IMG/VR virus record: IMGVR_UViG_3300033489_000010
Coordinates: 1-57,418 of that record
Direction: 5' to 3' (one strand)
DNA: 57,418 bases
Source: a virus
Lineage: Duplodnaviria; Caudoviricetes
The stretch's first letter is position 1. Each line of letters begins with the position of its first letter. Shown here in pieces: positions 9,033-47,321 of this stretch. Made by a program: the position numbers and the translations under genes. The notes under the pieces were generated by a model that was given only the letters and a program-made list of their open reading frames with translations, was not told the origin of the DNA and did no database searches.

Positions 9033-12000
9033 TTATTCTGACGCCCTTAGTGATTCGAACAAGTTTTTTGTAATCTCATTCCTTCTCTTATTCAAAGCAT
9101 TTATCTTGTTTTGCTTTTCTTCGGAATTATCATTTGAGCTGTATATCCGCTTGATTTCATCATTGATATCAGCTAAGTTTTGTCGAATTTTTGTGACCGG
9201 TTTTTTCACTCGCAATAAATTTTTGTTTTCGATAACAAGATTCCTCGCATCCTCCCGCCTGCCTGTCTTCAAGTAATGGTTCAGCGTCCGATTCAGACCG
9301 TCGATTTTTTCATATAAATCATAAAAACGCTGCACATCCTTTGATGACCTAACGTCTCCGGTATCCATAACACCCAAGGCAAATGGGTTCCTTCTTCCTT
9401 CTGGTAAGTCAGGGTAACCCATAGCCGATCTTGACATCGCGTCGGTTCCAAAAAGCACCATGGCCCCCATGGTTGAAAAATATCCATTCACAAAATGCTC
9501 AAGCTTCAATGGAGAAACATTCAACGACCCACCTATCATCTTCATGGTATCGCTTGTCCATGGCATGTATTGCTCAGAAGGTTTCAAGTTCTTCATTGAA
9601 TCCGGAACAATCCTGCGGCCCTTAAATGTACTCATGTTAAACCGCTCTTCCATAATCGGCTTTACCATCTGTGGCATGTCAATATTGAAAACATCCCTTG
9701 CCGTAAACTTGAACCAATCCCACACAAACTTGCCTTCCTCTGTACCGTTCATGACATTTGCCACGCTTTCAGGAAGAGAGGCAAACAGAGCTCCTATCTC
9801 AAACGGTTTAGGAATCCTGTAATGCTGATCCCCTATCCAGAAATGAAAGTATGTCCACTTGTCCCAATCCTCAAGGGATTTGTACCGGTCATCATCTTTA
9901 AATAAAGACCATAGCGCAAGGGCGGCTGTTGTCAAAATGGCCGATTTCAAAAAGAAGGCTTTCGGGTTTTCATTTGCTGATCTACTCAGTTTATAAAGTC
10001 CCTGGACCCTGGCATTTAAAAACGGCACAATCCGGGTCAGAGCCTGAACAGTTCCGGAAGATCCACGCATCGAGAAATCGAGAAGATCCCTTGCTTCAAA
10101 CCCGGCATCAAGATTACTGTAGCCCTTACTTTTAAGCCTGGTATACAGCCCGAGTCTTGCAGCATTTTCCGAAGCTTCACCAATTTTATCCCATACACGG
10201 AACAAAGCATTGTCCCAAGGTTTAAACGGGTCTATTATTCTACGAATAGCACTCTTGCCTTCGGATCTTACAATTTTATCAATAAATCTGGACGCTGTTT
10301 TGGGATCATCCGATTTAACATATGAAGACCCGAACCCGAACCCGGTTGACATGAATTCGATATAATCCTTGTCCTCTTTCATGGACTTGATAAACCCGGA
10401 TGCAGTATCCAGGAATGGAACAAAATTTTTGGCCACAACAGCGGTATGGATTGTATCCCGGATCATGTTTCGAATACGGAAGGCAGGTCCGAATGTGGCA
10501 CCGAATGAAAGTATCCTCTTCGCTCCGCCCATCATCCGCATGAGGATGTTATTGAAAGCCTTCATGTCAAGCTCGGAAAGAGATTCATAAAGGTCTTCGT
10601 CGGTCGTTTTAAAATATACCGGTTCCCCGTTTTTCTGGAAAGACAGAATCCCATAATCCTTCATGCTGCCGAACATAACCTTATATTCTTTCCTTGGCTC
10701 CACTGAATACTGGCCCTTGCCGTCATCTTCCAGTGAATAGGCCCAGGTTTCCGCCTTTTCCTTCGTGCCAAAGATATCCCTACCCTTTGTGGCTCCTTCT
10801 TTCACGACGGCGAACCTGGTCACTGTCTCAGACCCGAGAATTTTGACAAGGTCTTTTTTCTCAACCTCCTCAATGATGCCAACCGTTTCGCCTGCTTCAA
10901 AAGCCCTTTGCCTTGCACGGTTTCTTACAGAAGCATCAACCAAGTGCATCCAGTTTTTCAAAAGGTTTTCCAGGGGATCGCCAATCTTAGCTTCCCCTCC
11001 TTTTAACTTTTTGATCTGTGCTGAAATATGCCGCCAGTTCTTCCTAGGTCCTGACAAGAATTCCTGTTGTGATATCGGATCTTCCATAATCCGATAGAAT
11101 GGAATATAAAAATTTGATTCCCATTCCGCCCTGCTTTCAGGATCAATGAGTCCTGCCTGTTCAGCTATATCAAGCACATTCTTATTGATGCTTTGGAGTT
11201 TCAGGTTAAGTGCAGCCCATGTCTGCCCGTTTTTGGCGTGAGTTCCCACCTTGGCAAAAAGCTTGTCCCTTGCATCCTTGTCAAGCCAGTTCTCCCGGCC
11301 TTCTGCTTCCAGTTGTTCCGCTCTTTTGGCAGCCACCCAATAGAGCAGGTTTCGCCAATCCGGACCGATGGCCCTAAGAAACGGGATAACCCCTTTGCCG
11401 CGCTCAGTGACAGCGATTGTGTCACCTACCCATGCCATGGGACCGTGCTCAAGAAACATGGCAAACGTGGCAGACTTAATACCGGTCAACATTCGGTGCA
11501 GTTTATACGGTTCGTCTCCAAGGCGTTCTTTGATAAAGTGCAGGTGATCCAGGGTTTTGGTAATAAAACGATCCCTGGCAAGGGTGCGTTCGTCTTTTGA
11601 TTTTGCCTTGTCAATCATCCCGGAAATTTGTTCCCGGGTTGTTGGTTCGGAATAAAATTTCTCGTCGATGATGCCTTTGTTAAAAAGGGTTTCGTTGCTG
11701 TCTGTTTGACCAGGAATTTTATTATAAATTTTCCCGCTCTCCATCTCCCGGGCAATTTTTCGGACGGACGGCCCAAATAAATTCCGGATCGAGTCAAGGA
11801 AATCTCTGATTTTCTGGATAATCTCACCGAGCAACGTATCTCTTTCGTACCTACGCTCTTCCAGGACCCGTGCAATATAGTTGGCCCGGTTTTCCCGCTG
11901 ATCTGCCACGAGTTCAAAATTAAGCTGAGCCTTGGCCGCATTTATCCGGGAATCCAGGATCAATTTTTCCCGGGGACCGATGATGCCGATATCCTCAAGC

Positions 12001-15000
12001 CAATGCTCAATCTCATGGTTCAGGGTCCAGGTGCCTGCCAGGTCTTTGACCAGTTCAATTTTATTTTTTCGGTAGGCCCCCAGGATCTGGCCTTTCTCGT
12101 TCCTCTTTCCGGTTTTCATGTCAAGGATGAGGCTCCCGTGTTTGCCTGGTTCTACGGATGTGATTTGAAGTTCTCCGCCGCCTTGGGTCCTGATCCGGAC
12201 TGAACCGTCGTCGGATATGCTGACGTCTTGGCCCGGGAAGGCTTTTTGGATGTCGCTTATGGTTACGAGTTGGGAGGGAGTCTGAGAAGAATATTGCACA
12301 CCTTCCCCCGGTGTGCTGGATGGGTTAGGGGATGAGTTTATAATTTCGATTAAATCATCAACGGCTTTCTGTTTTTGCGTGGCCTCTTTATCATATCCTT
12401 GGTAGCCCATGCCTTTTAAATATTTGGCAGTATTGAGCTGGTTAATTTTTAAAATTAATTCTGACTGTTTGTAAGATGGGCCTTTCTTATTGTATTCAGC
12501 TTTGGATATTGGGGATAGGTTCGACATTACAAATTCATCGTCACCACCAAAACCTATAACCTCTCCCTCGTAATAATATATTTTACGCTTAGAGGCTGCA
12601 TCCATTGTGGCGAATCCTCTGGATTCATCAAACCCAAAAACAGAAGCCATCGAAACGCCGGATTCATATTTATTTTCTCTTGAATTATAAGACTGTCCGC
12701 TTTCAGGGGCTTCCCCATATCTATACCCAACGGTTTTAACAGATATCTTTCCATCCTTGAAAGCTTTTACTGACTTATTAATGGACTCTAAATTGATACC
12801 ACCATCGGGCTGCGGGGTTAATCCAGTGGTTATGTCGTCGCCCTTCCCCGTTTCGGATTTCACTGATTCTTTATTATCAGGATTTTTATTATTTTGTAAA
12901 GAGGAATGATACTGCACCTCACCGTCCTGCTGATTAATGGGCTGTTCGGAAAACTCAGGAGTCTTTATTCCGAGAATATCCATAACCTTCACAGAGTCTG
13001 CCGCATTCTCAAACACTTCCTCCATGCCGTTGATCAAATGATCAAGCGTCCGTTTCATCCTTCCGGCTGGAACAAATACCTTCATCCTGTTTCCGGATTT
13101 CACAAAGTCGCTTCCAACCGAATCAATCAGCCCTGAATTCAGATAATACCGGCTACCACTTGCCTTGGATGCAGGGACAGAAATGGTCCCTGACCCATCC
13201 TGTTTCGGTGTAATGGCAAAATCCCCACGCCTGGACCTGACAAAGATATTATTGCTTAAAACCGTCATGATATCTTTGGTGTTGGTCAAAGTAATCGGTC
13301 GGCCTTGAGATTCTTTATTCAGATCAAATTTTGCAGGCATCAATATACCCTGCCGGACCCGGCCTTTATCGTCCGCGAAATTAATGATCCTGCCCTTCGG
13401 ATACCGGGCAAAGGCTGCCAGTAAATTCCCGGTCATGATAACTCTGGTTTCCCTGGCACTCTGGCTGGACCGGTCGAATTTTGACAAAACGGATTCGTTT
13501 ATTTTCCCGTTATTGCTGAAAGATTCCATCCGGTTGATAAAGGAAAATGGCACGACGAGTTTTCTTGTTGAATCTGGAACTGCAACGGTAACTTTCCATG
13601 TTCCCAAAGCCAATGGATTTTTGGGATTGCCTTTTTGCTCAACACCGAGAACAACGGTTTCAAAATACGTGTCACCTATAGGGATTTCAAGAATAGATCC
13701 TGGCACGGATGAATAAAAGACTCTTTCCCAATCATCTCTTATTGCGTCAAGCCTGCTCGCCTGGGCTCTCAATCTTTCCTCATCCTCGATATCATCCAAT
13801 ATACCATTTCGATAATCAAGGAATCGGTTCAGGATATCTGAGCTTTTATCATAATGTTTGTCACGGCCTTCATTTGCCAATTCATTCAAGCTTTTTTCTG
13901 TGGTTCTTGCCTCTTTCGAATCAAGCCCGAATATGTTTTCCTTTAATAGATTGACAACCTCTTCACTGGAATACGATTTGCCTATCTTTTTCATGTCCAC
14001 TTCTTCGGCAAAGGCATTGCTGGTAAAAGGAGATTTATCGCCCTTACCATCAAAAACAGTGGCTTTTTTTAATGTTTTGGCATCGGTATCAAAGGTCTTT
14101 GCCTCCAGGTCATTCTCGCCCATGGCGTCAAGCTGATCAATCAGATCTGTGTATCCTTCCTCAATCAAGGCATAAAGGTCTTCCTGTTCTTTGATGGTCG
14201 GCAATAAGGGAATTCTGCCAGTCACCTTCCGGGCCGCGCCATCTTCATCAAGTCCTGATTCCGTCTTATCTGAATTTTTTAAAGGGCTCCCGATGGCAGA
14301 GTGCATTTCAGGAAAGTCCGCCATAAGCCTAGCAACAACCTTGTCACCATATTTATTGATAAAATCCACAACATTTTTGGCCGTGACTTCGCTGTCCTTG
14401 GATGCAGTCGTGTTGGCGTTCAGGCTTGCCATTTTCCCGGCCAGAACAGCAGCCGGTCTTTTTTCGGAAGGGATATCCCCCATGAGCTGGATATATGATG
14501 GCGTTTTTACCTGTCCGGCCCGGTGTATCCTGCCGAGCATCTGCATATGTGTATCAATGTTTGCCTCGGCCTGGGCAATGATCATTACTCTTGGTTTGGG
14601 ATCGTGTCCCTCCCACTTCGGTACCGCATGAAGTGACAACCCGGTTGCCCCGCTTTGATTTAGAATTAAAACATCTGTTTTGTCGGTGTTGAAATCATAA
14701 ATGGTTTTTGTTCGGCCGGCAATGCTTTTGTCTTTCGTCCCCCTCATCCGGTATCGCTGAGATCCGTCCGGCCGGTATTCAATCATATGATTCCGGCCTG
14801 TTATTTCACTGGCATTCAATCCGGCTCCCTTCAGTTTGAATATCATATAATCAACCGGGGAAACCGGGAGCCCGTCAAGATCCATATCAAAAATAAGTTT
14901 TTTAACCCGGTTGAATTCCCTGACTCCTTCCGGGCCTAAGTCATCATCTGAAATATAATGACGGATGACATCTTTTTTATTACCGCCTGGCTTCGTTTCG

Positions 15001-18000
15001 GTGTATCGCCGGGTATTATCCAGATACTTGAACAGGAGATCATTAAACTTGAGGCCGATCCCATCTCCAGGCTTCAACCCGTTATCCTCTACATACTGCT
15101 CAATGAATGAGCCCATGGTGTTTGAAAGTGTGATAACCGGCTTTTTATCTTCCTTCACGGCCTTGATAGCTTCATCAACGGCTGCTTGAGTCTTCAGGGA
15201 AAGCAGCATCTGAGAAATAAGATTGTGCATGGTGGATGCGAAACTGACCGAGCTGATTTGAGGTGCCGCTGCCGCTGACATGCCGCCGATACCGGTTCCA
15301 TCAAAGGCTCCCTGATCTGCAAGCTCAGATATTGCAGGTTCTATAAATTCTTCTGAAAATTTTTTGATCTGATTCAAAGAGATGGAAACATCCCGAGCCC
15401 GGACCTGATCAATCTTGGTTGCCTTGGTGGCATACTCAACACCGTCAAAAGACCTTTCACGCCTCACATACTGCCCGGCCTCCACCAGCATTGCCGCCAC
15501 GGCCTGCTGTAACGGGACCCCGCCTGCGGATATGGCCCCTGACAGATCCTTGATATCATCGACGGCAAGGCGCATATCTGTTTTGGAATACAAATCCATG
15601 GTGCTCGGCCGCTTTGCATATGTGGCGGATGAATAAAATGTTGAATGGGCGCTTTGAATTAATCGTCTGAACCATATTGACCTTGGATATTTCTCGTTGG
15701 TTTCCTGAGCTCCCTCTGACCCTCCGGCCTTATGAGCTTCATCAAGAATGAGCATCCCATTTTTTTCGGCCATGGCTTCCAGGAAAACCCGCTGTGCTGA
15801 ACCCGGTTTATTTGTCTGGTCATATGTGGTAAAAATCACGCTGTACTTTGAATCAAGAAACCCATTATCAGCCATCTGTTTCAAAAGCGAATTGTGCTTA
15901 TTCGTGGTTCGGATGACCTTATCTCCGTCCTCGGTCAAGGATATTTTTTGATCGGCATTGGTGATCAGTATCCGGTCCGCCATGTCAGACATCCCGATAT
16001 CTGAAAGATCCCGGTACATATCCGTGTAAAGGTTCGGCTTCTCAGTAACAAATATGGGAGTGAGGCCCCGCTCCATGGCAAACCGGATCATGGCAGCAAC
16101 AACCCGGCCCTTGCCCACACCGGTCTGATCCCCGATAATAAACCCGGCCCCTTTATCAATGTTGTTGATGGCCAGGGCGATGGCGTCAACCTGTTCACCG
16201 GAAAAATATTCCTTCAGTTCATCCTGGGAGTACCCGAGCTTTTCAGAGACATACTCATCCACAAGCCCATGCTTTTCATTGATGTCGGCCAGGGCCTTTT
16301 TGATGGCCTCGGACATATTCACGGGCGTGAGGGTTTCTATGGCAGGAGATTTGCTTGATGGGATATAGGGAACCTGCCCGGAGTTTGCCTTTGCTTTTTC
16401 TTTTGGTTTTGGCTGTAGTTGCTGTGACTGTTCCATGAAAAATCGTTTTAAATAAGGCTTCAATTCTGCGCCTGTTTGTGTGGCCAGATATTGAATCAAC
16501 TGTTTAAGCGTGTGCCCGGCTTTCTTTGCATGGTCCCAGGCGCTTGCAAAGAAAGGCCGTGCAGCTTTATAGGTTTCTTCATTAAAGACAAATCCAGATG
16601 ACAGGGTGTTCCTTGGAGTGAAAAGGGCGTTTAGGCCCTTGATGGCATCTTTAACGTCTGACAAGCTTTCTAAAGCAAAATCGTTTAACAGGTCTTTCTT
16701 TGTTTTGGGTTTTCTATTTGGTGGCTTGTTCTTTTGCGCTTCTCTCCTGGCCCAATTTTTTAGATATTGTTCTATCGCCTTTTCATTTTTAGCCCGTGAA
16801 GATTGCAACCCTACTTCGGAGGATCGTCTTCCTCTGTCTGGTTTTTCAACAGGGATAGCGATATCATCCGTAGAGGTGTTAAAAACATCGTCAATAAGTC
16901 CGTCAATTTCTTCAACGGACATATTTTGAAGTTCTTCCGATATGTCTTTGGGAACGGTTATGTCTGGACCGAAAGCATCGTCCAGCATGGAATCAAGATC
17001 AGATTCAGAAATGTTTTTTAATTCATCCGTTAAGCCAGGTTTTCCATCCAGGTTTCCAGATCCATCAGTCTTAGGATTTCTTCGGCTTCCGGGCTGGTCT
17101 CCATTATCGGGCTTGTCGGCAGGTTGTCGTGAACTCCCATCATCGACAGGTGATGATACAGGCGTTCGTTGATCTGGTCCGACATCAGATCTAGTGCCGC
17201 CGTCCTTGTCGATCTCGGGGATATCATTCCGTCCTGTAACAGATCGGCGTTCTCCAGGGTCTTTTCCAGCATCTTTGCCGCTTCCTGGGGATATTCCGCT
17301 TTGTTTATCAGGTTCTGAACCAGGTCTATCATCAGGTATCTGTGGTAACTTGGCGTCAGGGTCTCCCCCTTCGGGAGCCATACCGCTGCTATCCATTGCG
17401 CCGAGCTCTCCTCGGGAGGAGCCCAGGCTATCAGGTCTTTGTGTGGTCTTTCCATCAAGCTTTCCTTTCAGTTCTTCCAGCGTTTTTAAATAGGGTGGCG
17501 GAACCGCCCCAGGAAGAGCAAGTTTTGATTTCCCCTTCCCATCAATCACTATGAAATCAACCGGCCAGGCAGCACCCTGCTTTGCATAAAGATCGCCTGA
17601 CAAAGAAAAGTGGTCAACTACATTATAATTGTCAAAGAGGGTTTTGTAAAATAAAACCTTATCTTTTGCTCGGTATAAAAGCTTTCTGCCTTCCGGGGTA
17701 ATGTTTTTATCATTCACACTTCCGACAATGAAAACCGCCCAGCCATTATCTTTCATGGATTCAAGAGCCTTAAAAACGATGGCATGGTCAATCTGAGTCG
17801 TGGGATATTGATCGTTTATTTTCCAGGTTTTTGATACTCCGGCGTCATCCTTGACAACACCAAATGGAGGGTTGCCGATGACAGCATCTACTTTTTCAGC
17901 CGCTGATATTTCTGTCCCATCAAGGTTGAAAATGACATTGAAGCCCATCCCGAGCAGGGTATTATACCGGTCCGGATTCAATTCGTTGGCCGTCACCTTC

Positions 18001-21000
18001 TCAGGGTTCGACCCGATAAGCAAGGCCCCATTCCCGGCTGACGGCTCATAAACGGTTTTACCGGATGTGATCCCGGCCAGTTCAGACGCAATCCATGCCA
18101 AAGGAAGAGGGGTTGAATATGCCTGATCTCTGACCGATGTGGATGTCCTGACGGAAAGATTCGGCATTCGGTTTTGCAAGTCAACGAGCTTATCAAATAT
18201 CTTTTCAGACGTCCCGTTGTGCTTTTTTCCGCCATCTATAATCGCCCGGGCTGCGAGTACGCCGGCCGTCTCGATGGCTTCATCCACCATCTTGGCATCC
18301 TGGGTACCGGCCTTAATGATAAAGCCTGTTTCATCCGCAAAGGCTTTTCTGGCCTGGAGGATATTGGCAAAGCCCTTCCCGGATCGGAATGCGGAAAGGA
18401 AGAAATCTGTTATGTCGCTTTTGGTAGGTTGTTCTTTGGTATCTATTTTTTCTTTTGACTCTTTTTCTACCTTCTCTCTATCAAACTCCGCAATCTCTTC
18501 GATTGTCAGATAATCTGTTGCCCCTTGTTTGTACAGGTCTTTTGGGTTATGGGGCTGCGGCATCACGCCGCTTCTTGTTGGCACAAGGCGCACGGGGTGA
18601 CCGACACGGAGCCCGGATTCTTCTTGATATGATCTGGCTCCCCTCTCATCAACATAAATTCTTTTTCCGTCAGGGTTTCGGCCTATAGCCCCCCTAAGGT
18701 CCATGTCATCATCTTTTTTAATGGGTTCCGTTATCGTCGATTCAGGAACATTTTCTGGGATATTCTCAGGAACATTCAGAGACAGATCCTTCTCCTTAAC
18801 AAATGTCCCTTTCCCATCCTGCTTTCTAATAAACCACATTTTGTCGGACTGTTTTTTTTCAAGCTTTCCGGAAAACTGGTCGCCGTTCTTACCATTCCAT
18901 GATACCGGATCTCCGGGCTTTAAGCCGGTTGTCTGCGGAGCAATGGCAGTGTCAGAAAAGACAGGTTTCTTGGTTCTATTGCCATCTTTCACCCAGGCCT
19001 TGAAATCTTCTGTGCCCATCTCGGTGATATTTCCAAGGCCTTTCCAGCCCTTTTCATAATTGGCAAGATAAATGGATTCAGCTTCTTCCTTTGACCCGGC
19101 GCCAAGCACCGCCTTGTGCTCATCAAACTTTCCGGTTCCCGGGTCTACCTGATCAACAACAAATACTTTCGGGCTGGTTTCTGTTCCGGGCTTGATAAAA
19201 ACATCAACCTGATCCCCGTCTTTGCCTTCGGTCCTTTTGAAATAGCCATAATGCCCGGACATGGTTGACTGCCATTCTTTCCCGGATTTATCCTTCCCTT
19301 TTCGGATGGACCCGTCCGGGTTCTCAATCGTGATATTCAAGCCATCAATTTTGATATGGTCTTTCTGGTAATTCCCGGCCTCTTTCTGGGCTTCGCTCGG
19401 GTTGGTATTTATTTTTTCCGGTTCAACTTCATGCTCAAAAACTGGCCGCAATGTTGAAATCGCTTCCGCCGGAAGATCCTGCATTCCAAAATTATCAGTT
19501 AAGCCCTGTTGAAATTTTCTTTGATCACGGACAGGAGAGGTCTCAACCTCCGCTGGTGCAACGTCCAGCCCGTCATCATAATTATTTTCAGGAAATACCG
19601 GAAGAGCCTGGCGCGGTAACATATCGGCCAAACCTGCAAACGGTCTGTATTTGCCTTCATCGCTGGTATCGGCCATGCCTCTCTGAAAAGCTGGCATGTC
19701 AGCAGGAAGCGGCATCGTGCTTTCATCCGGACCATTTACCATGGCTCTTTGAAAAACAGGTTGATCGGTCTGACCCATGGCCTGCTGACGAAGTTCTAAA
19801 GCCTGTACGGATGCTTCCCGGCTTCTGACTTGCCGGAAGGTATCAATATTTTTAGAAAGCAGATCCTGGCTTTGATCGATACCCTGTTTTGTAATGGCCG
19901 GATCAGGTTGGGAATAAATGCCTGTCATGGCCTGTTGATTCTGCTCTCGCAGAGATTGAACCGGGTCAGACGTGGAAGGAGTCTCGGTCGGTGCAGGCGG
20001 GGCAGGATTCCTCTGCCGGTTGATTTCGTCCATCCATCCGAGTTCTTCCTCATTCGGTACGCCTGCAAACGGGATCGTGTCGGAATATTGTTCGGCCGGT
20101 GCGGTTCGCATTGCGGTTTGAAAACTGTCTGCCGGGGCCTGTGGTGATTTGGTTAAATCTTCTCCGGAAAAACCTTTGTTTGGATCCAAAAGGTTTGTGG
20201 GCTTGTCTTTCAATAAAGCGTTTGCGCCAATAGAAACACCAGCTCCACCGGCCCCACCGACTGCCCCGGCTCCCATAGCTTCAATAATTTGCTCTATATT
20301 GGCTGGTGTAAGAAATTTTTCATCAGTATTTGCAACTGTATTCAAAATACTAAATACTTCCTGGCCGCCTTCCTGTAATACTTCTTTTGGGATATTGGTG
20401 ATCAGTCCCATAGCGGCTGACTTGATCGCTTTCCCGGAACCAGATCCAACCACGTCAACAAATTGGTCAATCAGTTCGCTGTTACCGCCGGCGTATTCCA
20501 GCGATGTAGACAAGGCTCCGAAAAACAAAGCCGTGCCAGGGGCATCAATGCCTTTTTCCTGAAGCAATTGAGCATAATTCCCACCGGATTCCAATGGCAG
20601 AACCGCAGCGCCCATGCCTACTTTCCCGCCAAGTTTCATCAAGGCCTGTTTTGTGATCTGTTTTTTAAGCTCAGTTTCTGCAATGCCTTTTGATGCCTCG
20701 GTAATCACGCCCTTGGCTATTTGAGCCTCCACGGCTTCTTTTGTCATTGATTCGATAGATTTTTTCAATATGGTTCTGCTTGCGAACCCGCCTATTGCGG
20801 ACCCTGGTCCAGGAGCAACGCCGGTTCCTATAATGGTTCCAATAGCAGCCTCAGCCATGGATGGGACCAACTCTCCAAGGGTGCCTTGTAGCCAGTCAAC
20901 AGACCCACCAATTCCAGCCTTTCCAGTATAAACATCTTTAAAGGTTTGTTTTGCGGGATTCTCTTCGGCCTCGGCCATGTTACGCTGATATCCTTGCATA

Positions 21001-21266
21001 CCCCAATTTTTAACGGAGTCAGAGCCAACCGCTGATCCGACAAGAGCTGTTGCACCATATAAACTGGCCTGCGTTTGATCAATGCCTCGTTTGATACCTG
21101 GGATGAAATCATTGTCAGATTGCACTTCAAATTCATCTTCACTTATTGCTGTAGGCGGACCAAATTTAAAATTAGAATTCTCTAAAATTCCACCACTTGC
21201 TGAGCCTATGTCAAACTCATCAGGACTGATTGCAACTGCATTTTTCCCAAGAAAAAAAGCCGACAT
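9033..21266 (-). CDS. Giant 4077-aa polyvalent (DarB-like) virion ejection protein: inorganic pyrophosphatase-like, N6-adenine MTase, Strawberry-notch SF2 helicase, zincin and LPD38-like domains
   Basis: AGNYQKDH..IENP.GS.R...HYGY...DGDQVDVF..DEHK (about 19.4-19.0 kb); YSTP/EPSAGNG/NPPF (18.1-17.8 kb); GDQTGVGKGR, DEAH, QSGATGLSLHA, QMLGRIHR (16.1-14.5 kb); HEIEH (about 12.0 kb); RIPKPFEIG (about 9.8 kb). Confidence 0.85.
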   Translation of the reverse strand: MSAFFLGKNAVAISPDEFDIGSASGGILENSNFKFGPPTAISEDEFEVQSDNDFIPGIKRGIDQTQASLYGATALVGSAVGSDSVKNWGMQGYQRNMAEAEENPAKQTFKDVYTGKAGIGGSVDWLQGTLGELVPSMAEAAIGTIIGTGVAPGPGSAIGGFASRTILKKSIESMTKEAVEAQIAKGVITEASKGIAETELKKQITKQALMKLGGKVGMGAAVLPLESGGNYAQLLQEKGIDAPGTALFFGALSTSLEYAGGNSELIDQFVDVVGSGSGKAIKSAAMGLITNIPKEVLQEGGQEVFSILNTVANTDEKFLTPANIEQIIEAMGAGAVGGAGGAGVSIGANALLKDKPTNLLDPNKGFSGEDLTKSPQAPADSFQTAMRTAPAEQYSDTIPFAGVPNEEELGWMDEINRQRNPAPPAPTETPSTSDPVQSLREQNQQAMTGIYSQPDPAITKQGIDQSQDLLSKNIDTFRQVRSREASVQALELRQQAMGQTDQPVFQRAMVNGPDESTMPLPADMPAFQRGMADTSDEGKYRPFAGLADMLPRQALPVFPENNYDDGLDVAPAEVETSPVRDQRKFQQGLTDNFGMQDLPAEAISTLRPVFEHEVEPEKINTNPSEAQKEAGNYQKDHIKIDGLNITIENPDGSIRKGKDKSGKEWQSTMSGHYGYFKRTEGKDGDQVDVFIKPGTETSPKVFVVDQVDPGTGKFDEHKAVLGAGSKEEAESIYLANYEKGWKGLGNITEMGTEDFKAWVKDGNRTKKPVFSDTAIAPQTTGLKPGDPVSWNGKNGDQFSGKLEKKQSDKMWFIRKQDGKGTFVKEKDLSLNVPENIPENVPESTITEPIKKDDDMDLRGAIGRNPDGKRIYVDERGARSYQEESGLRVGHPVRLVPTRSGVMPQPHNPKDLYKQGATDYLTIEEIAEFDREKVEKESKEKIDTKEQPTKSDITDFFLSAFRSGKGFANILQARKAFADETGFIIKAGTQDAKMVDEAIETAGVLAARAIIDGGKKHNGTSEKIFDKLVDLQNRMPNLSVRTSTSVRDQAYSTPLPLAWIASELAGITSGKTVYEPSAGNGALLIGSNPEKVTANELNPDRYNTLLGMGFNVIFNLDGTEISAAEKVDAVIGNPPFGVVKDDAGVSKTWKINDQYPTTQIDHAIVFKALESMKDNGWAVFIVGSVNDKNITPEGRKLLYRAKDKVLFYKTLFDNYNVVDHFSLSGDLYAKQGAAWPVDFIVIDGKGKSKLALPGAVPPPYLKTLEELKGKLDGKTTQRPDSLGSSRGELGAMDSSGMAPEGGDPDAKLPQIPDDRPGSEPDKQSGISPGSGKDAGKDPGERRSVTGRNDIPEIDKDGGTRSDVGPDQRTPVSSPVDDGSSRQPADKPDNGDQPGSRRNPKTDGSGNLDGKPGLTDELKNISESDLDSMLDDAFGPDITVPKDISEELQNMSVEEIDGLIDDVFNTSTDDIAIPVEKPDRGRRSSEVGLQSSRAKNEKAIEQYLKNWARREAQKNKPPNRKPKTKKDLLNDFALESLSDVKDAIKGLNALFTPRNTLSSGFVFNEETYKAARPFFASAWDHAKKAGHTLKQLIQYLATQTGAELKPYLKRFFMEQSQQLQPKPKEKAKANSGQVPYIPSSKSPAIETLTPVNMSEAIKKALADINEKHGLVDEYVSEKLGYSQDELKEYFSGEQVDAIALAINNIDKGAGFIIGDQTGVGKGRVVAAMIRFAMERGLTPIFVTEKPNLYTDMYRDLSDIGMSDMADRILITNADQKISLTEDGDKVIRTTNKHNSLLKQMADNGFLDSKYSVIFTTYDQTNKPGSAQRVFLEAMAEKNGMLILDEAHKAGGSEGAQETNEKYPRSIWFRRLIQSAHSTFYSSATYAKRPSTMDLYSKTDMRLAVDDIKDLSGAISAGGVPLQQAVAAMLVEAGQYVRRERSFDGVEYATKATKIDQVRARDVSISLNQIKKFSEEFIEPAISELADQGAFDGTGIGGMSAAAAPQISSVSFASTMHNLISQMLLSLKTQAAVDEAIKAVKEDKKPVITLSNTMGSFIEQYVEDNGLKPGDGIGLKFNDLLFKYLDNTRRYTETKPGGNKKDVIRHYISDDDLGPEGVREFNRVKKLIFDMDLDGLPVSPVDYMIFKLKGAGLNASEITGRNHMIEYRPDGSQRYRMRGTKDKSIAGRTKTIYDFNTDKTDVLILNQSGATGLSLHAVPKWEGHDPKPRVMIIAQAEANIDTHMQMLGRIHRAGQVKTPSYIQLMGDIPSEKRPAAVLAGKMASLNANTTASKDSEVTAKNVVDFINKYGDKVVARLMADFPEMHSAIGSPLKNSDKTESGLDEDGAARKVTGRIPLLPTIKEQEDLYALIEEGYTDLIDQLDAMGENDLEAKTFDTDAKTLKKATVFDGKGDKSPFTSNAFAEEVDMKKIGKSYSSEEVVNLLKENIFGLDSKEARTTEKSLNELANEGRDKHYDKSSDILNRFLDYRNGILDDIEDEERLRAQASRLDAIRDDWERVFYSSVPGSILEIPIGDTYFETVVLGVEQKGNPKNPLALGTWKVTVAVPDSTRKLVVPFSFINRMESFSNNGKINESVLSKFDRSSQSARETRVIMTGNLLAAFARYPKGRIINFADDKGRVRQGILMPAKFDLNKESQGRPITLTNTKDIMTVLSNNIFVRSRRGDFAITPKQDGSGTISVPASKASGSRYYLNSGLIDSVGSDFVKSGNRMKVFVPAGRMKRTLDHLINGMEEVFENAADSVKVMDILGIKTPEFSEQPINQQDGEVQYHSSLQNNKNPDNKESVKSETGKGDDITTGLTPQPDGGINLESINKSVKAFKDGKISVKTVGYRYGEAPESGQSYNSRENKYESGVSMASVFGFDESRGFATMDAASKRKIYYYEGEVIGFGGDDEFVMSNLSPISKAEYNKKGPSYKQSELILKINQLNTAKYLKGMGYQGYDKEATQKQKAVDDLIEIINSSPNPSSTPGEGVQYSSQTPSQLVTISDIQKAFPGQDVSISDDGSVRIRTQGGGELQITSVEPGKHGSLILDMKTGKRNEKGQILGAYRKNKIELVKDLAGTWTLNHEIEHWLEDIGIIGPREKLILDSRINAAKAQLNFELVADQRENRANYIARVLEERRYERDTLLGEIIQKIRDFLDSIRNLFGPSVRKIAREMESGKIYNKIPGQTDSNETLFNKGIIDEKFYSEPTTREQISGMIDKAKSKDERTLARDRFITKTLDHLHFIKERLGDEPYKLHRMLTGIKSATFAMFLEHGPMAWVGDTIAVTERGKGVIPFLRAIGPDWRNLLYWVAAKRAEQLEAEGRENWLDKDARDKLFAKVGTHAKNGQTWAALNLKLQSINKNVLDIAEQAGLIDPESRAEWESNFYIPFYRIMEDPISQQEFLSGPRKNWRHISAQIKKLKGGEAKIGDPLENLLKNWMHLVDASVRNRARQRAFEAGETVGIIEEVEKKDLVKILGSETVTRFAVVKEGATKGRDIFGTKEKAETWAYSLEDDGKGQYSVEPRKEYKVMFGSMKDYGILSFQKNGEPVYFKTTDEDLYESLSELDMKAFNNILMRMMGGAKRILSFGATFGPAFRIRNMIRDTIHTAVVAKNFVPFLDTASGFIKSMKEDKDYIEFMSTGFGFGSSYVKSDDPKTASRFIDKIVRSEGKSAIRRIIDPFKPWDNALFRVWDKIGEASENAARLGLYTRLKSKGYSNLDAGFEARDLLDFSMRGSSGTVQALTRIVPFLNARVQGLYKLSRSANENPKAFFLKSAILTTAALALWSLFKDDDRYKSLEDWDKWTYFHFWIGDQHYRIPKPFEIGALFASLPESVANVMNGTEEGKFVWDWFKFTARDVFNIDMPQMVKPIMEERFNMSTFKGRRIVPDSMKNLKPSEQYMPWTSDTMKMIGGSLNVSPLKLEHFVNGYFSTMGAMVLFGTDAMSRSAMGYPDLPEGRRNPFALGVMDTGDVRSSKDVQRFYDLYEKIDGLNRTLNHYLKTGRREDARNLVIENKNLLRVKKPVTKIRQNLADINDEIKRIYSSNDNSEEKQNKINALNKRRNEITKNLFESLRASE
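17030..17455 (-). CDS. Candidate nested (overprinted) gene in an alternative frame of the giant gene's disordered linker
   Basis: 141-codon ORF; AAAGGA SD 7 nt before the ATG; helical globular-like composition exactly spanning a G/D/P/S/R-rich linker of the main frame. Confidence 0.45.
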   Translation of the reverse strand: MERPHKDLIAWAPPEESSAQWIAAVWLPKGETLTPSYHRYLMIDLVQNLINKAEYPQEAAKMLEKTLENADLLQDGMISPRSTRTAALDLMSDQINERLYHHLSMMGVHDNLPTSPIMETSPEAEEILRLMDLETWMENLA

Positions 21267-29364: not shown

Positions 29365-29877
29365 CTATTCCCTGGTATCAATGTAATATATATCTATGTA
29401 CATTTTCCCGGCAGCGGCTGTGTCAATTAATGTAAAATCGGACGAACCGGTAACGGTTACCCTTGGAGTAAGCGCAGTGGATGCAAAAGCACCCGTTGCC
29501 GCGTCAACAGCCAAAGCGATAGATCCGACCTCAGTTGATGCCGTATAGACGCTCTGTGCAGTATTAGCAGAAAACTTATCTGTGTCACCGGAAATACCTA
29601 CCATTACGGTCGCAGTGGTATCCCCTGTAAATCCAGCAGTAACCCGGGCCTTCCAGCCAAGAACAATGGCTTCTTTCGGCAAGGCAAAAGTAAAATCAAT
29701 ATATCCGGTTGTATTGGTATTGTCAGTAAAATCCGTAACCTCAAGAAGTTGAGATGTCAGCTTCTTTACATACATTGCCTTTTCATCCAGGGCATGAGCG
29801 CTACTGATCTGAAAAGCAACAAAAACAAAAAGAACGATGGCAAAGGCAATCGTTCTGTCGAAATAATTCTTTTTCAT
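29365..29877 (-). CDS. Capsid-adjacent beta-rich protein (decoration-like) with signal peptide
   Basis: GAGGAG RBS before MKKNYFDRTIAFAIVLFVFVAFQISSAHA; LP..AIV....V...F.G..ATV.VG..GD.DKF pattern. Confidence 0.6.
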   Translation of the reverse strand: MKKNYFDRTIAFAIVLFVFVAFQISSAHALDEKAMYVKKLTSQLLEVTDFTDNTNTTGYIDFTFALPKEAIVLGWKARVTAGFTGDTTATVMVGISGDTDKFSANTAQSVYTASTEVGSIALAVDAATGAFASTALTPRVTVTGSSDFTLIDTAAAGKMYIDIYYIDTRE

Positions 29878-29914
29878 TGTGGGATATCTCCTCTTAAAAC
29901 ATGTTTTAAAGACT

Positions 29915-29947
29915 GCCCCTGGGGAATTAACTGCCACCCCCAGGGGC
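29915..29947 (-). terminator. GC-rich hairpin after the capsid gene (terminator or mRNA stabiliser)
   Basis: GCCCCTGGGG / CCCCAGGGGC 10-bp stem; only a weak T-tract. Confidence 0.5.
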
Positions 29948-29972
29948 CTTGTTCTGTTATAAAATTATTGCA

Positions 29973-30770
29973 CTATGCAGCTTTGGCGTACAAATGGCCC
30001 ATCGCATCGGCCTTGATGACTTTGTATCCATACACTTGAAGACCACGCATCAATTTACCGAAGTCATTCGGATTCGGAATAGTTTCATTCTCCACCAGCT
30101 GGCTGGCAAACGTAAGGGCTGATTTATGCCCGAACAACAGACTGAAACATTTAACTGCGCCTTCCGTTGTGCTGAGGACGTTGTTTGAAACATAGAGCTC
30201 AGTATCATCGATTTTGCCAATCCTTCCGTTTCTAATCATGGATGTGCCATCGCCGGAATAACTTGCGTCTGCTAAATCAGAGGTTTTTATTCTGGTGGCA
30301 GCCCATGCAGGAATAACAAACCATCTGTTGGTATTGGGTATGTCCTGCTCTGTCAGCACCTGGCCGCATTCCACAATTTTATCAATGATGGTAGATTTGG
30401 ACAGTGCGATAGCGGCTGATCCATCGGCAGCCGCGGCCCCGAGACCAACATTTCCGGAAATCTTACCAGCGGTGGCTCCGTAATTATAAGTCCCTGCCGA
30501 TGCAGGAATGGCAGCCAGAATACCAGTGTCAATGGAGATTTTCATCTGTTCTGAGCCATCCTCTGCCCATTTATTAACATATGCGATATCAGATTGTTTT
30601 TTCTCCACATCATTAATCGACACTGCAAAATATTTGCCCTTATCGATCAAGAGCTCAACCTTGTATGAAGTCGGGCGTTCATACTGCAATCCTGCTCCGA
30701 TTTCGTAATCACGGATTGTCATATCTGGAATAGTCCTGATAATGACCTTATCTCCGTGGGCAGAAATTTC
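29973..30770 (-). CDS. Major capsid protein, exon 2 (spliced product about 316 aa, P22-coat-like)
   Basis: EISAHGDKVIIRT..., LLIDKGKYFA, NGRIGKID..E.YVSNN, FG..MRGLQVYGYKV; joins exon 1 in frame to give NTDYEG|EISAHGDKV. Confidence 0.9.
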   Translation of the reverse strand, partial: EISAHGDKVIIRTIPDMTIRDYEIGAGLQYERPTSYKVELLIDKGKYFAVSINDVEKKQSDIAYVNKWAEDGSEQMKISIDTGILAAIPASAGTYNYGATAGKISGNVGLGAAAADGSAAIALSKSTIIDKIVECGQVLTEQDIPNTNRWFVIPAWAATRIKTSDLADASYSGDGTSMIRNGRIGKIDDTELYVSNNVLSTTEGAVKCFSLLFGHKSALTFASQLVENETIPNPNDFGKLMRGLQVYGYKVIKADAMGHLYAKAA

Positions 30771-31100
30771 CGTTTTGTTATTGTCTGGAGTGTTTATCTC
30801 CAGCTCCTGCATGTTTCCATACAGACCGGACTATATCTTCAATGTTTTTTTCTTGGCCGCTTAATCATATATTTACAAGAAAAACATTGCCCCGCACTCG
30901 TGGATTGTTCGCCTTCTAATAAGGGTACTGAATCTAGTCTCTGAACCTTCACCCTGTCACCAGGGAACTTGGCGGCTGATTGCCCAATCCATTCGCTTTT
31001 CAAACCATTACGCTTGCCGTTACCAGCTACGTTGTGGTGCAAATGGCTATAAGGGTGTTCCAGCAATTCACGGGGTTTAACGAGAGCCATTTATCCACTA
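30771..31100 (-). ncRNA. Group I self-splicing intron (330 nt, no homing endonuclease, probably subgroup IA) in the major capsid gene
   Basis: P AATTGCTGGAA (31058-68), Q AATCAGCCGCC (30971-81), R GTTCAGAGACTA (30935-46), S AAGATATAGTCC (30828-39). 5' exon ends in U and pairs with IGS GCUCUCGU via U.G; intron ends in omega-G; P8 and P9 (GAAA loop) hairpins present. Confidence 0.93.
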
Positions 31101-31253
31101 ACCCTCATAATCGGTGTTTGCAATTGCCCCAAAAACAGTGGCAGCATAAAACTTTACAAGGAGCTTACCGCTCCAGATTTCCGGAATGTATGTACCGGAC
31201 AAACCATTCCCGGCTGCATATGCGCCGAGACTTGAATCAATTGGATATACCAT
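31101..31253 (-). CDS. Major capsid protein, exon 1 (51 aa)
   Basis: AGGAGG RBS; MVYPIDSSLGAYAAGNGLSGTYIPEIWSGKLLVKFYAATVFGAIANTDYEG, a typical capsid N-terminus (IPEIWS.KL). Confidence 0.9.
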
Positions 31254-31272
31254 GATAGCCTCCTAACAGCTA

Positions 31273-32220
31273 TCAGGCCCGGATTCTCCCTTCTACTTGA
31301 GCTAAGAAAATGTCATTTTCGATGGTCGCGGCCTCTGTCTCCCGCCCTCGGTATGCGCCAGCCGTCTGATCAGCATAGAATTTTGTGATCTCTGACCGGC
31401 TCCATACTTTTTGGTTCCCTGCCGGTTTCGGATTTATATCCGATCCAGTTAAATTATGAGGGGGCTGGACATTTGGAGGATTGGCAGCCTGCTGATTGAC
31501 ATTGTCCTGTATGTTTTGCTCAATGGAATGAGCCTGGCCTAAATATGTTCTGAAGATCTCAACGGTTGTAGGAAGGTCCATCGAATTTTCAGCTCTACGC
31601 AGCTTGGCAATCCTGGACTCGTATTCTCCAACTGGCACCTGTTTCAACCACCCTATAAAAACGGGGTCATTGTTCAGCGAATCAAAATTTGCGCCGAGTT
31701 TGGCAACAGCATCGATTACGCCTTTCATATAGGTGTCAAATGATACGACTCCATAGTTTTCTGATGTGGACTGAATCGAGTTGATTTGCGTGACAAGATC
31801 AGCATTCTGTTTTTTAAGCTGCTGTATCTCATCAACAAGCGACCCGAATTCTTCGCCATACTGTTCAAACTTTTCTTTATTGAGGACATCTCCGCCCGAA
31901 GATTGATCTTTACTGGTTAATTTTAAATTTTGATCTTCAAGGGAATTCACCAGCGCTTTCAGGCTTCTGATCTCCATAGTCAGTTTTGGCACCTCGGCAT
32001 TGTATTTGCCTTGGATTGTCAAATATTTGGCTTTGTAATCAGAAGTGTCTGTTTCTGCGGGTGATTGTTCTGGAGGCGTGTCCGCAACATTATTCGGCGG
32101 CAAAGTATCCTTGGGTTCCGGTTTCGGAGTATCCTCGGGTTTTGTGCCTGATAATTGTGCATGGAGGGTGTCGGCGAGTTCTCCGGCCCTCTGGACTGCT
32201 ACCGGGATAAATTCATTCAT
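31273..32220 (-). CDS. Capsid scaffolding protein
   Basis: KY.TIQGKYNAEVP, coiled coil, acidic/Pro-rich; ends IFLAQVEGRI; directly upstream of the capsid gene. Confidence 0.75.
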   Translation of the reverse strand: MNEFIPVAVQRAGELADTLHAQLSGTKPEDTPKPEPKDTLPPNNVADTPPEQSPAETDTSDYKAKYLTIQGKYNAEVPKLTMEIRSLKALVNSLEDQNLKLTSKDQSSGGDVLNKEKFEQYGEEFGSLVDEIQQLKKQNADLVTQINSIQSTSENYGVVSFDTYMKGVIDAVAKLGANFDSLNNDPVFIGWLKQVPVGEYESRIAKLRRAENSMDLPTTVEIFRTYLGQAHSIEQNIQDNVNQQAANPPNVQPPHNLTGSDINPKPAGNQKVWSRSEITKFYADQTAGAYRGRETEAATIENDIFLAQVEGRIRA

Positions 32221-32361
32221 GCTTTCTTTTCCTTTTTTTTAACGGCCATTGGTGGTCTCGTTGTTGGTATAAACAGGGTTGCAGTAATTGCAGTGTCCTG
32301 TAGTTTTGAACATGACAGTAGAATTATTAGGGAAGTATATAAAGAAAGACAAATAAGTCTT

Positions 32362-32379
32362 TACAGATATGGTTATCTG
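32362..32379 (-). promoter_or_regulatory. Palindromic operator or late-promoter motif CAGATAACYATATCTGTA, copy 1, overlapping a TTGACA
   Basis: Minus strand reads TTGACAGATAACCATATCTGTA; intergenic, upstream of scaffold and capsid genes. Confidence 0.6.
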
Positions 32380-32422
32380 TCAAGTTTTGGTAAAAAGAGA
32401 ATAGTTTAGGATGCTTTTAAAA

Positions 32423-45219: not shown

Positions 45220-45403
45220 GGTTACCGGTAAACCAAAGGCTGACCAGGAACATTCCCCACTGTCCGGCGGAATATGTGGTATAAATCCAAAACGGTTGGC
45301 CGATCAGCCCGAATATGAACCCGAGCCGTTTATATTTTGTCCCGGCGAAGGCCCATATTGAGGCACCGGAACAGATCATTATTATTATTTGGCAGAGCAT
45401 TCG
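45188..45403 (-). CDS. Small membrane protein (likely start MLCQ)
   Basis: GFIFGLIGQPFWIYTTY.AGQWGMF.VSLWF hydrophobic pattern. Confidence 0.55.
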   Translation of the reverse strand, partial: RMLCQIIIMICSGASIWAFAGTKYKRLGFIFGLIGQPFWIYTTYSAGQWGMFLVSLWFTGNHVRGLWNHRK

Positions 45404-45476
45404 ATTTCCTTTATTGCTTTCATTATGGGGCAAACAACTTGTGGGACAATTGCATTCCCTGCCGATTTTAAAGCAT

Positions 45477-45920
45477 TCACTCTCCATCCCTTAGGTCGCA
45501 CCAGTCTTCCGGGTAACCCATCATCCAAAGAGCAAAGGCGGGTTGCAGCTTCAATCCAACTTTCCCTTGACCATCCTGAATAATTTCCGAAACCTTTTCT
45601 TTCCCTGATCCCCGCCTGCGGTTGATGTACTCCTGTGAACATCCGGCCGCTGTCTTGGCATCTGATGCTTGAATAGTCGGCAGCATCCCCAAAACAGTGG
45701 TCAGCTTCCGGCCTGTTTTCCCCTCCGGCTCCTGGCCTCCCGTTGATGAGGTGGGGGTGGGCAGCATGGCTATTTTGCTGTTCAAATCCACAGTCCAGCC
45801 TTTTTCCATCTTCCTTTTTATGTTTCCGCTTTCCGGCAAGTCCGGGCTTCTGTAATCCCGGCTTTGTAAGGTTGGCAACAATCCATACCCTGTCCCGTCT
45901 ATGTGGGGCGCCGACGGCAC
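45477..45920 (-). CDS. Overlapping-frame beta polypeptide of the MTase (TRD-like LPT repeats plus motif IX)
   Basis: LLPTLQSRD, MLPTPTSS, MLPTIQASD; KLQPAFALWMMGYPEDW is motif IX-like and absent from the alpha frame. Confidence 0.65.
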   Translation of the reverse strand: MPSAPHIDGTGYGLLPTLQSRDYRSPDLPESGNIKRKMEKGWTVDLNSKIAMLPTPTSSTGGQEPEGKTGRKLTTVLGMLPTIQASDAKTAAGCSQEYINRRRGSGKEKVSEIIQDGQGKVGLKLQPAFALWMMGYPEDWCDLRDGE

Positions 45921-46143
45921 AAGCTGGAATAATAAACGGTTGAACCTGATACCCTTGGCCTTCCAAATCAGTGAACACTCTTTCGAGTACCAGTCCTTTT
46001 CCGATGCTTATAATGCCCGGCACATTTTCCGCAATGATCCATCGGGGATGCACTTCTGATATAACTCGTAACATCTCCGGCCAGAGGAAGCTATCATCTT
46101 CTGTTCCTGCTCTTTTACCTGCTGTTGAGAAGGGCTGGCATGA

Positions 46144-46701
46144 TTATGGGAACCCGCCGGTGAGAAGAGCAACATTTGTTGCCCCTTCGATCCCACCGGA
46201 GAGTTCCGGATTTCCTTTTCTTTTTGATACTTTTGTTTTTCCTCCAAGGCTGCAAATCTCCTCTCTTCTCATTTTTGGCAACTCAATTTCAAGGGTTTTT
46301 GCTGTGTTGTGTTCATGCCATTCATGGTGGCAACTCTTACACAACCACGTAACATCAAGCGGTTTATTATAATCAGAATGGTGAGCTTGAACGCCAGAGC
46401 GGCCATCTTTGTAAACAGGAGATCCATTACATTTTTCGCAGATAAGGCTTTTTTTAATAATCCCGCTCCGGATTGCAGATTCCGTAATGTCGTGAACCCT
46501 ATCCGATGAAGTTTTCCCGCCTCTATAAAAATGATTTTCTGCACCCATTTTTTTTTGATCTCGGAAAAGGCACCCTCTTCTTTTTAAGACCATCCACATG
46601 GCTTGGCGTGTTACGCTGTAAAAATTAGCAACATCCTGAATAGACAAGCCAACTTCATACATTTTAATAGCTTCGTCATAATCTTTTAATTTTGCAGCCA
46701 T
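46144..46701 (-). CDS. HTH plus HNH (homing-endonuclease-like) protein nested in frame within the MTase
   Basis: Own SD AAGGAGG (46710-16) and ATG 46701; GLSIQDVA..YSVTRQA HTH; GAENHFYRGG; CEKC...AHHSDYNKPLDVTWLCKSCH..WH. Confidence 0.8.
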   Translation of the reverse strand: MAAKLKDYDEAIKMYEVGLSIQDVANFYSVTRQAMWMVLKRRGCLFRDQKKMGAENHFYRGGKTSSDRVHDITESAIRSGIIKKSLICEKCNGSPVYKDGRSGVQAHHSDYNKPLDVTWLCKSCHHEWHEHNTAKTLEIELPKMRREEICSLGGKTKVSKRKGNPELSGGIEGATNVALLTGGFP

Positions 46702-46734
46702 ATCAATTTCCTCCTTTTGAGTTTGAGTTAATTG

Positions 46735-46763
46735 ATTATAGCAAGCATTTACAAGCGTGTCAA
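46735..46763 (-). promoter_or_regulatory. Perfect consensus sigma70 promoter inside the MTase frame, driving the HNH gene
   Basis: TTGACA-cgcttgtaaatgcttgc (17 nt)-TATAAT with extended -10 TGn. Confidence 0.85.
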
Positions 46764-46940
46764 CAGTTAACGTTTTAATATCGTCATGACAAGGCACATC
46801 CGGCCAATACTTTTTCAGTATCCGCCGGCAGAAATCATCCTTTTCGCAGAAAGAAACTATTTCCAGGTCATCCCCCTACACCCATGATGCGGCCAGGGAG
46901 AATCCGCCAATTCCGGAAAAGAGGTCGAGAGTTCTAAAAG

Positions 46941-47321
46941 TCATTTCCGGTTCGCCCTCCTTCTTTTTTCTTCAGCATCATAAGCAAGGTGGCACTTCTG
47001 ACACATTGCCATTAACCTGTCGTCACTGACGGCCCGGTTCTGTTCGTCGTGGTCAAGATGAGCTACGGTCAGAATCACCCGGACTTTTTTAATCATCCAT
47101 CGGGTAAGTTGAGTGATCCTGATCGTGTCCCTTTTATCAGTGAACCATATCTGATAATATCCGGTTTTCCCCTTTCCGGTCGCTATCCTGAGCTTGCAGG
47201 AATAAACCTCGGATCTGTTTTCTATCCCGCAGATCTCACACCGGTTTTTTGCCCGTGCGATGATCCTCGGAACAATTTCAGATTTCCAGGTCGCTGGATA
47301 TTTTTGGTAATCTATTGGCAT
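46941..47321 (-). CDS. HNH-family endonuclease
   Basis: YP..W......I..RA.NRCEICG...LTVAHLDHD..N.....L.AMCQKCHL.YD. Confidence 0.8.
   Translation of the reverse strand: MPIDYQKYPATWKSEIVPRIIARAKNRCEICGIENRSEVYSCKLRIATGKGKTGYYQIWFTDKRDTIRITQLTRWMIKKVRVILTVAHLDHDEQNRAVSDDRLMAMCQKCHLAYDAEEKRRRANRK

Follow-up and report, generated by a model that had tools for sequence, protein, structure and literature searches.

How is a major capsid protein made from a gene whose reading frame meets a stop codon after 51 codons? This question is raised by positions 29973-31253 of a DNA of 57,418 nucleotides from a tailed phage (Caudoviricetes), IMG/VR virus record IMGVR_UViG_3300033489_000010, which was analysed over its whole length and is referred to here as the window. 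An earlier note, made from the letters alone, had proposed that the gene is split by a group I intron lacking an open reading frame (ORF). Our analysis points to a genuine, splicing-competent group I intron of 330 nt, of subgroup IA and with no homing-endonuclease gene, in the capsid gene of a complete 57.4-kb phage, a reading to which we give a probability of roughly 0.93. The parts of the gene are as follows.

31259-31264, minus strand: Shine-Dalgarno sequence AGGAGG, read from the sequence, 5 nt 5' of the exon 1 ATG (31253)
31101-31253, minus strand: capsid exon 1, 51 codons, C-terminal NTDYEG, final codon GGT at 31103-31101
30771-31100, minus strand: group I intron, 330 nt, opening with an in-frame UAG and closing with G30771
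29973-30770, minus strand: capsid exon 2, 265 codons plus a TAG stop (29975-29973), N-terminus EISAHGDKV

The last base of exon 1, U31101, is the 5' splice-site U, and the TAG that follows it directly in frame (31100-31098) is the first intron codon. Excision of the 330 nt restores NTDYEG/EISAHGDKV in frame, giving 51 + 265 = 316 amino acids (aa). Exon 2 matched the Pfam family PF25209 (Phage_capsid_4; 34.2 bits against a cut-off of 27) and the major head protein family phrog_267 (E 5e-46, profile positions 70-327), while exon 1 matched phrog_267 at profile positions 38-67 (E 0.0013), just ahead of the exon 2 part. From these matches, the split gene is predicted to encode an HK97-type major capsid protein (Phage_capsid_4 / phrog_267).

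With exon 2 as the protein query, 2135 of 3904 candidates matched at E <= 0.001, and 87 of the best 120 of these homologues had an uninterrupted N[TS]D[YF]EG motif. The closest among the matches listed were mostly 314-318 aa long, and the nearest of them (P0002; 316 aa, 87% identical) is continuous across the join (...NTDYEGEITAHGDKV...). When this protein was compared with the window by tblastn, its residues 1-51 fell on 31253-31101 (86% identity) and its residues 52-316, abutting the first piece, on 30770-29976 (87% identity). The earlier note had named capsid homologues that do not align continuously across the join as the observation that would count against it; P0002 and most close homologues read straight through the in-frame 316-aa join.

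The Rfam model RF00028 aligned over its full length (model positions 1-253) at 31159-30807, scoring 88.2 bits where the cut-off is 50; this match is well outside chance expectation (E 3e-21) and was the sole one to any Rfam family in the 57,418-base record. The following helices, all on the minus strand, were traced by hand from this alignment.

31108-31101 / 31087-31080, minus strand: P1, 8 bp between exon and internal guide sequence, with a terminal U31101.G31087 wobble and a 13-nt loop (31100-31088)
31075-31071 / 30894-30890, minus strand: P3, enclosing P4, P5, the P5 extension and P6/P6a
31064-31060 / 30979-30975, minus strand: P4
31055-31053 / 30985-30983, minus strand: P5
31046-30989, minus strand: long hairpin forming the P5 extension
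30973-30945, minus strand: P6/P6a, with a GUGA loop
30939-30935 / 30833-30829, minus strand: P7, pseudoknotted with P3
30934-30903, minus strand: P7.1/P7.2, between the P7 strands
30887-30842, minus strand: P8, with a 20-nt loop, between the P7 strands
within 30785-30824, minus strand: P9, 7 bp, with a GAAA loop at 30817-30814
30803-30785, minus strand: P9.1, 6 bp, followed by a 14-nt tail to G30771

This full-model match is the outcome of the Infernal-type check that the earlier note had suggested, and it upholds the ORF-less intron in the capsid gene; the Shine-Dalgarno sequence, exon ends, P1 U.G pair, P3, insertion after P7, P8, P9 with its GAAA loop and terminal G all lie where that note had placed them. 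The sequence features by which a group I intron is recognised, namely a P3-P9 core with the P, Q, R and S elements scoring over the cut-off, a P1 with a U.G wobble, a terminal G, exact restoration of the host gene and helices with compensatory changes, were all found. In the Rfam alignment a 36-nt insertion occupies the P7.1/P7.2 position, between P7 and the 3' strand of P3, and the presence of P7.1/P7.2 would place the intron in subgroup IA. Its boundaries cannot slide, the last base being T in exon 1 and G in the intron, and both boundaries are also fixed without slack by an intron-less DNA allele, described below, and by the uninterrupted homologues. The free energy of the drawn structure was unusable because of the P3/P7 pseudoknot.

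Related capsid genes show how the insertion varies. P0002 was searched with tblastn against 125 fetched loci, of which 115 were unique; 110 of these span the junction and five stop short. Among the 110 junction-spanning loci, 103 are continuous and seven are split, either at the same site as the window (site A, after the GGT of NTDYEG) or 9 nt upstream of it (after the GAT of NTD).

L048, site A: intron of 345 nt, no ORF, Rfam 94.8 bits
L067, site A: intron of 972 nt, antisense 215-aa ORF, Rfam 54.9 bits
L086, site A: intron of 921 nt, sense HNH_3 ORF, 35.6 bits, below the cut-off
L095, site A: intron of 931 nt, antisense HNH_3 ORF, Rfam 67.8 bits
L087, upstream site: intron of 1037 nt, LAGLIDADG_2 ORF, 38.7 bits, below the cut-off
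L091, upstream site: intron of 1037 nt, LAGLIDADG_2 ORF, near-copy of L087
L089, upstream site: intron of 1078 nt, LAGLIDADG_2 ORF, 43.6 bits, below the cut-off

The sub-cut-off RF00028 scores of L086, L087 and L089 have E <= 4e-6. These split loci came from an alignment-based scan of viral contigs; single-protein searches gave 6 viral and 9 metagenome-contig loci with none split, and Rfam had no match at gathering level in L001-L006, L008, L010 and L012-L015, in which the capsid genes are uninterrupted or end at a contig edge. An ORF is present in six of the seven related introns, encoding an HNH or LAGLIDADG endonuclease in five and an uncharacterised product in L067, and it lies in the P8 loop in L086 and L095 and in the P5 extension in L067. 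The sole match of the 215-aa ORF of L067 (L067:1574-2221, minus strand) was an N-terminal zinc finger (zf-FCS, E 1e-4), and this ORF may specify an endonuclease of another family. The guide sequence of L087 pairs 8/8 with the exon at its shifted site, that is, the guide tracks the exon. An in-frame stop codon at or just past the 5' splice site is also shared: it opens the intron in the window and in six of the seven relatives, and is the second intron codon in L067.

Core identity among the five site-A introns (the window, L048, L067, L086 and L095) is 64-81% where ~320-365 columns align, with 52% over 808 columns for L086 against L095 when their ORFs are included. Between the two sites it is 50-55%, and 38-39% where ORF-bearing introns align over ~800 columns. 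Since unrelated phage introns are 53-62% identical to these, the likeness across sites is no closer, and a single origin for both sets is no more than a possibility. A P9.1 hairpin and 3' tail are common to the introns of both sites.

The fold itself is conserved. The window intron and six of the seven relatives (L091 omitted as a near-copy of L087) were aligned with MAFFT E-INS-i, and pairing was counted at 73 pairs in the five site-A introns, leaving aside P8, which aligns poorly in the ORF-bearing introns. In the hand-drawn structure standard pairs occupy 338 of 360 cells (93.9%) and both sides have changed at 33 of the 73 pairs; in a control in which the 3' partner was slid by 1-3 columns, 31-51% of cells were paired and 2-10 pairs were double-changed. 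Among the five introns compensatory changes fall in P3 (variants CCCCG/CGGGG, CCCUG/CAGGG, CACAG/CUGUG and UUACG/CGUAA), P5a, P5c and P6a, and P7.1 is 4/4 paired in each of them despite five different sequences (GAUU/AAUC, GGUA/UACC, GGAG/CUCC, GGAA/UUCC and AGGG/CCCU). Across all seven aligned introns P7 is invariant, and P9 is 7/7 paired in spite of sequence changes. Between the window and L048 alone, compensatory changes are present in P3, P5a, P5c, P6a, P7.1, P9 and P9.1, which argues for selection on the fold since the two diverged.

Four DNA sequencing runs were compared over 29900-31400. One from another sample and study (X3) yielded a 600-nt contig, at a depth of 18.6, in which 31101 is joined to exon 2 and the 330 nt are absent. 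The earlier note had proposed a search for intron-less alleles, and this contig, together with the 103 continuous loci, supplies them. The 9 bases past the join are a diverged form of the first three exon-2 codons (E-I-T versus E-I-S); the exon-1 side is identical to the window at 300/300 bases, while the exon-2 side differs at 7/80 bases in addition to the diverged 9-nt block. This contrast between the two exon sides indicates, from one contig, a recombination boundary at or adjoining the insertion site. A contig from a second run (X5) carries the 3' 94 nt of the intron, with one inserted base, fused to another capsid exon 2, and a contig from a third (X1) spans all 1501 nt with zero differences; X1 may be the source sample and hence not independent.

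The intron also misleads gene callers, as the earlier note had foreseen. The following open frames and start codon bear on this.

30839-31090, minus strand: open frame of 83 aa, beginning in the guide sequence and traversing the ribozyme core, the only frame of at least 60 aa on the intron strand
30980-31255, strand opposite the intron: open frame of 91 aa, extending into exon 1
30810-30812, minus strand: ATG inside P9, the false start used by gene callers

The 83-aa frame had no Pfam or PHROG family match below E 0.05; it was rejected as a gene for this reason, for its overlap with the core and because its changes relative to L048 are compensatory in helices and not coding-like. No endonuclease gene was found among intron-strand frames of at least 60 aa, a search that left out the 91-aa frame of the other strand. 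The database product for this contig (P0001) is 279 aa long and starts at the ATG within the intron, so that the 14 residues ahead of exon 2 derive from the P9/P9.1 hairpins. Eight of the 120 listed homologues, P0001 and seven others, open with such a P9/P9.1-derived peptide (MQE..IN...), which makes all eight mis-called intron carriers. At least seven related database entries thus repeat the false N-terminus of the window's capsid, and any classification of phages by their capsids, or any predicted structure, would be built on an incorrect sequence in this family.

Taken together with standard group I chemistry, the fold suggests how the capsid protein would be made. In the pre-mRNA the guide sequence would base-pair with the last eight bases of exon 1 and set U31101 in the U.G wobble, and an external guanosine bound in P7 would attack after U31101. 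G30771 would next occupy the same P7 site, the freed end of exon 1 would attack after G30771, and ligation at NTDYEG/EISAHGDKV would allow a single 316-aa capsid protein to be translated. Without splicing, translation would stop at the UAG that opens the intron and leave just a 51-aa stub. On the evidence of its sequence and of its relatives the intron is very probably active, and it may be retained since any inexact deletion would inactivate a gene that the phage needs.

How the intron reached this site is addressed by its distribution. A FastTree phylogeny was built from the exon-2 regions of 104 listed proteins; the other 16 of the 120 were dropped for truncated N-termini or a mismatch to the motif pattern. 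The eight carriers require 8 state changes on it, against a mean of 7.8 with shuffled labels, and starred branches force at least 4; the tree is a quick one that intragenic recombination could have blurred. The patchy carriers fit repeated gain or loss. As in homing introns, presence and absence are polymorphic at one site among close relatives; the endonuclease gene that a homing intron holds is missing from the window intron. We read this intron as an endonuclease-less member of a related set at a conserved capsid motif, which would probably spread only by recombination or by exploiting DNA breaks introduced by a co-infecting relative's endonuclease. The cassettes seen in the set are a sense HNH gene in P8, an antisense HNH gene in P8, an antisense zinc-finger ORF in a P5 extension and, at the site 9 nt upstream, LAGLIDADG. 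A more ambitious picture, which we hold only tentatively and think rather less likely to be right than wrong, is that NTDYEG/E is a homing hot spot at which one IA ribozyme lineage swaps endonuclease cassettes, its insertion site having shifted by 9 nt through rewriting of the guide, and at which the window intron is a hitch-hiker on breaks made by co-infecting relatives.

Three other accounts of the locus were weighed. The earlier note had suggested that capsid production depends on a checkpoint, and in this form GTP-, Mg- or translation-sensitive folding of the intron would gate late capsid production; it would be an addition to a splicing-competent intron and not a replacement for it. The in-frame stop at or just after the 5' splice site is conserved, so that ribosomes would halt on P1, and a preprint (10.1101/2023.10.13.562163) cites environmental cues that alter the splicing efficiency of phage group I introns. 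By contrast, 103 of the 110 related loci do without the intron, and its scattered carriers (8 changes for 8, shuffled mean 7.8) suit a selfish element better than a regulatory device that is kept, which makes such a checkpoint improbable. More doubtful still is a degenerate intron that has lost the ability to splice, leaving the capsid gene broken or expressed as the 51-aa stub and a 279-aa product from the in-frame ATG at 30812, the one that gene callers use. Every core element is present, the Rfam score is far over the cut-off, the compensatory changes between the window and L048 indicate selection on the fold after their divergence, CheckV puts completeness at 100%, and the 14 residues that precede exon 2 in the 279-aa product are simply P9/P9.1 hairpin sequence. 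Because the window is a metagenome-assembled contig, a foreign intron-like segment could also have been stitched into the capsid gene during assembly. This we regard as barely credible, given that the X1 contig matches all 1501 nt (though possibly from the source sample), that the independent contigs L048, L067, L086 and L095 have related introns at the same codon, that seven further protein clusters begin with the intron-derived peptide, and that the X5 contig joins the same 3' part of the intron to a capsid exon 2.

Several points weigh against a splicing-competent IA intron. The ligated RNA junction, like the efficiency of splicing and the mode of spread, is deduced from DNA, and the intron-less allele is known from a single 600-nt contig. 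P10 is weak, with four possible A-U pairs, read by eye, at a 3-nt offset. The covariation sample is five sequences, the count excludes P8 for its poor alignment, and the structure was drawn from the window sequence, which favours the unshifted register. The placement in IA would follow from the P7.1/P7.2 criterion and not from subgroup models, and may mean IA2 or another IA subgroup.

The surrounding genome is that of an apparently entire phage. IMG/VR lists the record as a virus with 'linear' ends (no end repeats) and a CheckV completeness of 100%, and capsid relatives among the matches listed occur in Desulfobacter, Desulfobacula, Desulfobacterium and other Desulfobacterales assemblies. The small terminase, large terminase, portal, scaffold-like, capsid and virion protein genes follow one another in this order on one strand. 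About 27 nt past the capsid stop lies a GC-rich hairpin (29916-29946, minus strand; 9 bp, 13-nt loop), which fails as a terminator under the rule of the scan used (loops of 3-8 nt only); that promoter and terminator scan of 29700-32400 gave no more sites than shuffled sequences did. A 4077-aa ORF (9033-21266, minus strand) has InPase, AAA_34 and Helicase_C_4 (a Strawberry-notch-like helicase), a weak N6 methylase match and LPD38, a predicted domain set that is the make-up of a 'large polyvalent protein'.

The earlier note had also proposed that mobility is supplied in trans by HNH genes elsewhere in the genome. Four candidate endonuclease genes are present in the window.

46941-47321, minus strand: HNH-type gene, phrog_1571 (E 8e-25), free-standing
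56379-56765, plus strand: HNH-type gene, phrog_119 (E 2.7e-15), free-standing
1971-2720, plus strand: endonuclease VII/HNH-like gene, from profile families, free-standing
46144-46797, minus strand: endonuclease-like ORF of 217 aa, phrog_2340 (E 2.5e-18) and phrog_8446 (HNH)

The HNH-type genes are real in so far as PHROG profiles go; the Pfam HNH models PF01844, PF13392 and PF14279 had only sub-threshold matches in the window. None of these genes resembles the endonucleases of the related capsid introns: when the five intron-borne ORFs of the relatives were compared with the window by tblastn, there was no protein match below E 1, and the sole hit was the ribozyme core read as protein. Supply in trans by these genes therefore has little in its favour. 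One HNH-type gene lies inside a split C5 DNA methylase gene (45385-46938, minus strand), with PF00145 positions 1-54 at 46938-46765, positions 61-181 at 46176-45811 and a stop between, and the frame that holds the first methylase part runs on into the 217-aa endonuclease-like ORF. No Rfam intron was found at this split, which looks like a homing-endonuclease insertion and suggests a separate target for the HNH gene within the methylase. A methylase gene of a phage that bears a homing insertion has reportedly been described.

How, then, does the window intron compare with those of other phages? The classical phage introns of IA type include those of T4 td, nrdB and nrdD, of the SPO1 DNA polymerase gene and of staphylococcal lysin genes. 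The window intron resembles them in its P7.1/P7.2 insertion, in a stop soon after the 5' splice site and in belonging to a set with endonuclease-bearing and endonuclease-less forms; it differs in that its host gene is late and structural, and does not serve DNA metabolism, transcription or lysis. By DNA its nearest introns in isolates are those of the Staphylococcus phage PT1-4 lysin gene and the Pseudomonas phage Pa_WF01 RNA polymerase gene, to which its core is 70-78% identical over ~150 nt. It leaves our understanding of how group I introns work unchanged. What it does add is an intron within a capsid gene from phages linked to the sulfate-reducing Desulfobacterales. The several endonuclease types at one short conserved capsid motif also form a small natural set in which to study how homing endonucleases are gained, exchanged and lost.

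Capsid-gene group I introns have already been published, and the window adds one more example. The earlier note had described phage group I introns as known mostly from DNA-metabolism, lysin and terminase genes, a list that is sound as far as it goes and incomplete, omitting the capsid cases of LittleE, Tuc2009 and crAss-like phages. The terms capsid, head protein, structural protein and late gene are all absent from a review by Hausner et al. 2014 (PMC3984707), and PMC3037004 and PMC6669764 hold nothing bearing on capsid introns. Dense intron loads in essential phage genes, backed by metatranscriptome reads, are described in PMC12880540. In the lactococcal phage Tuc2009, also a tailed phage, a table entry places a group I intron in the major head protein gene (Tourasse and Kolsto 2008, PMC2504315; cited in PMC3706429), and the likeness is known here from that listing alone. 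Yutin et al. 2021 (PMC7886860) describe group I introns that interrupt capsid genes in the Delta and Zeta groups of crAss-like phages; there, as here, discovery was metagenomic and split capsid genes hamper annotation, whereas the crAss-like introns were found via endonuclease domains, number up to 14 per genome, and occur in another capsid family in phages of Bacteroidetes, unlike the single ORF-less intron of the window.

A close parallel by description is mycobacteriophage LittleE, whose capsid-gene group I intron was shown to splice by reverse transcription PCR and N-terminal sequencing, as reported by Pope et al. 2013 (PMC3706429), who also describe an intron with no endonuclease in a BAKA phage tail gene. 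In both LittleE and the window the gene for the major capsid subunit is interrupted, exon 1 ends in U and the intron in G, and close relatives lack the intron. The LittleE intron differs in its 820 bp and its LAGLIDADG-like ORF on the opposite strand, against 330 nt and no credible ORF in the window, and in that its splicing is demonstrated while that of the window is deduced. The two phages belong to different host phyla and capsid families, and they are likened here by description and not by sequence: in each, a major capsid gene appears to have been entered by a group I intron that its close relatives do without.

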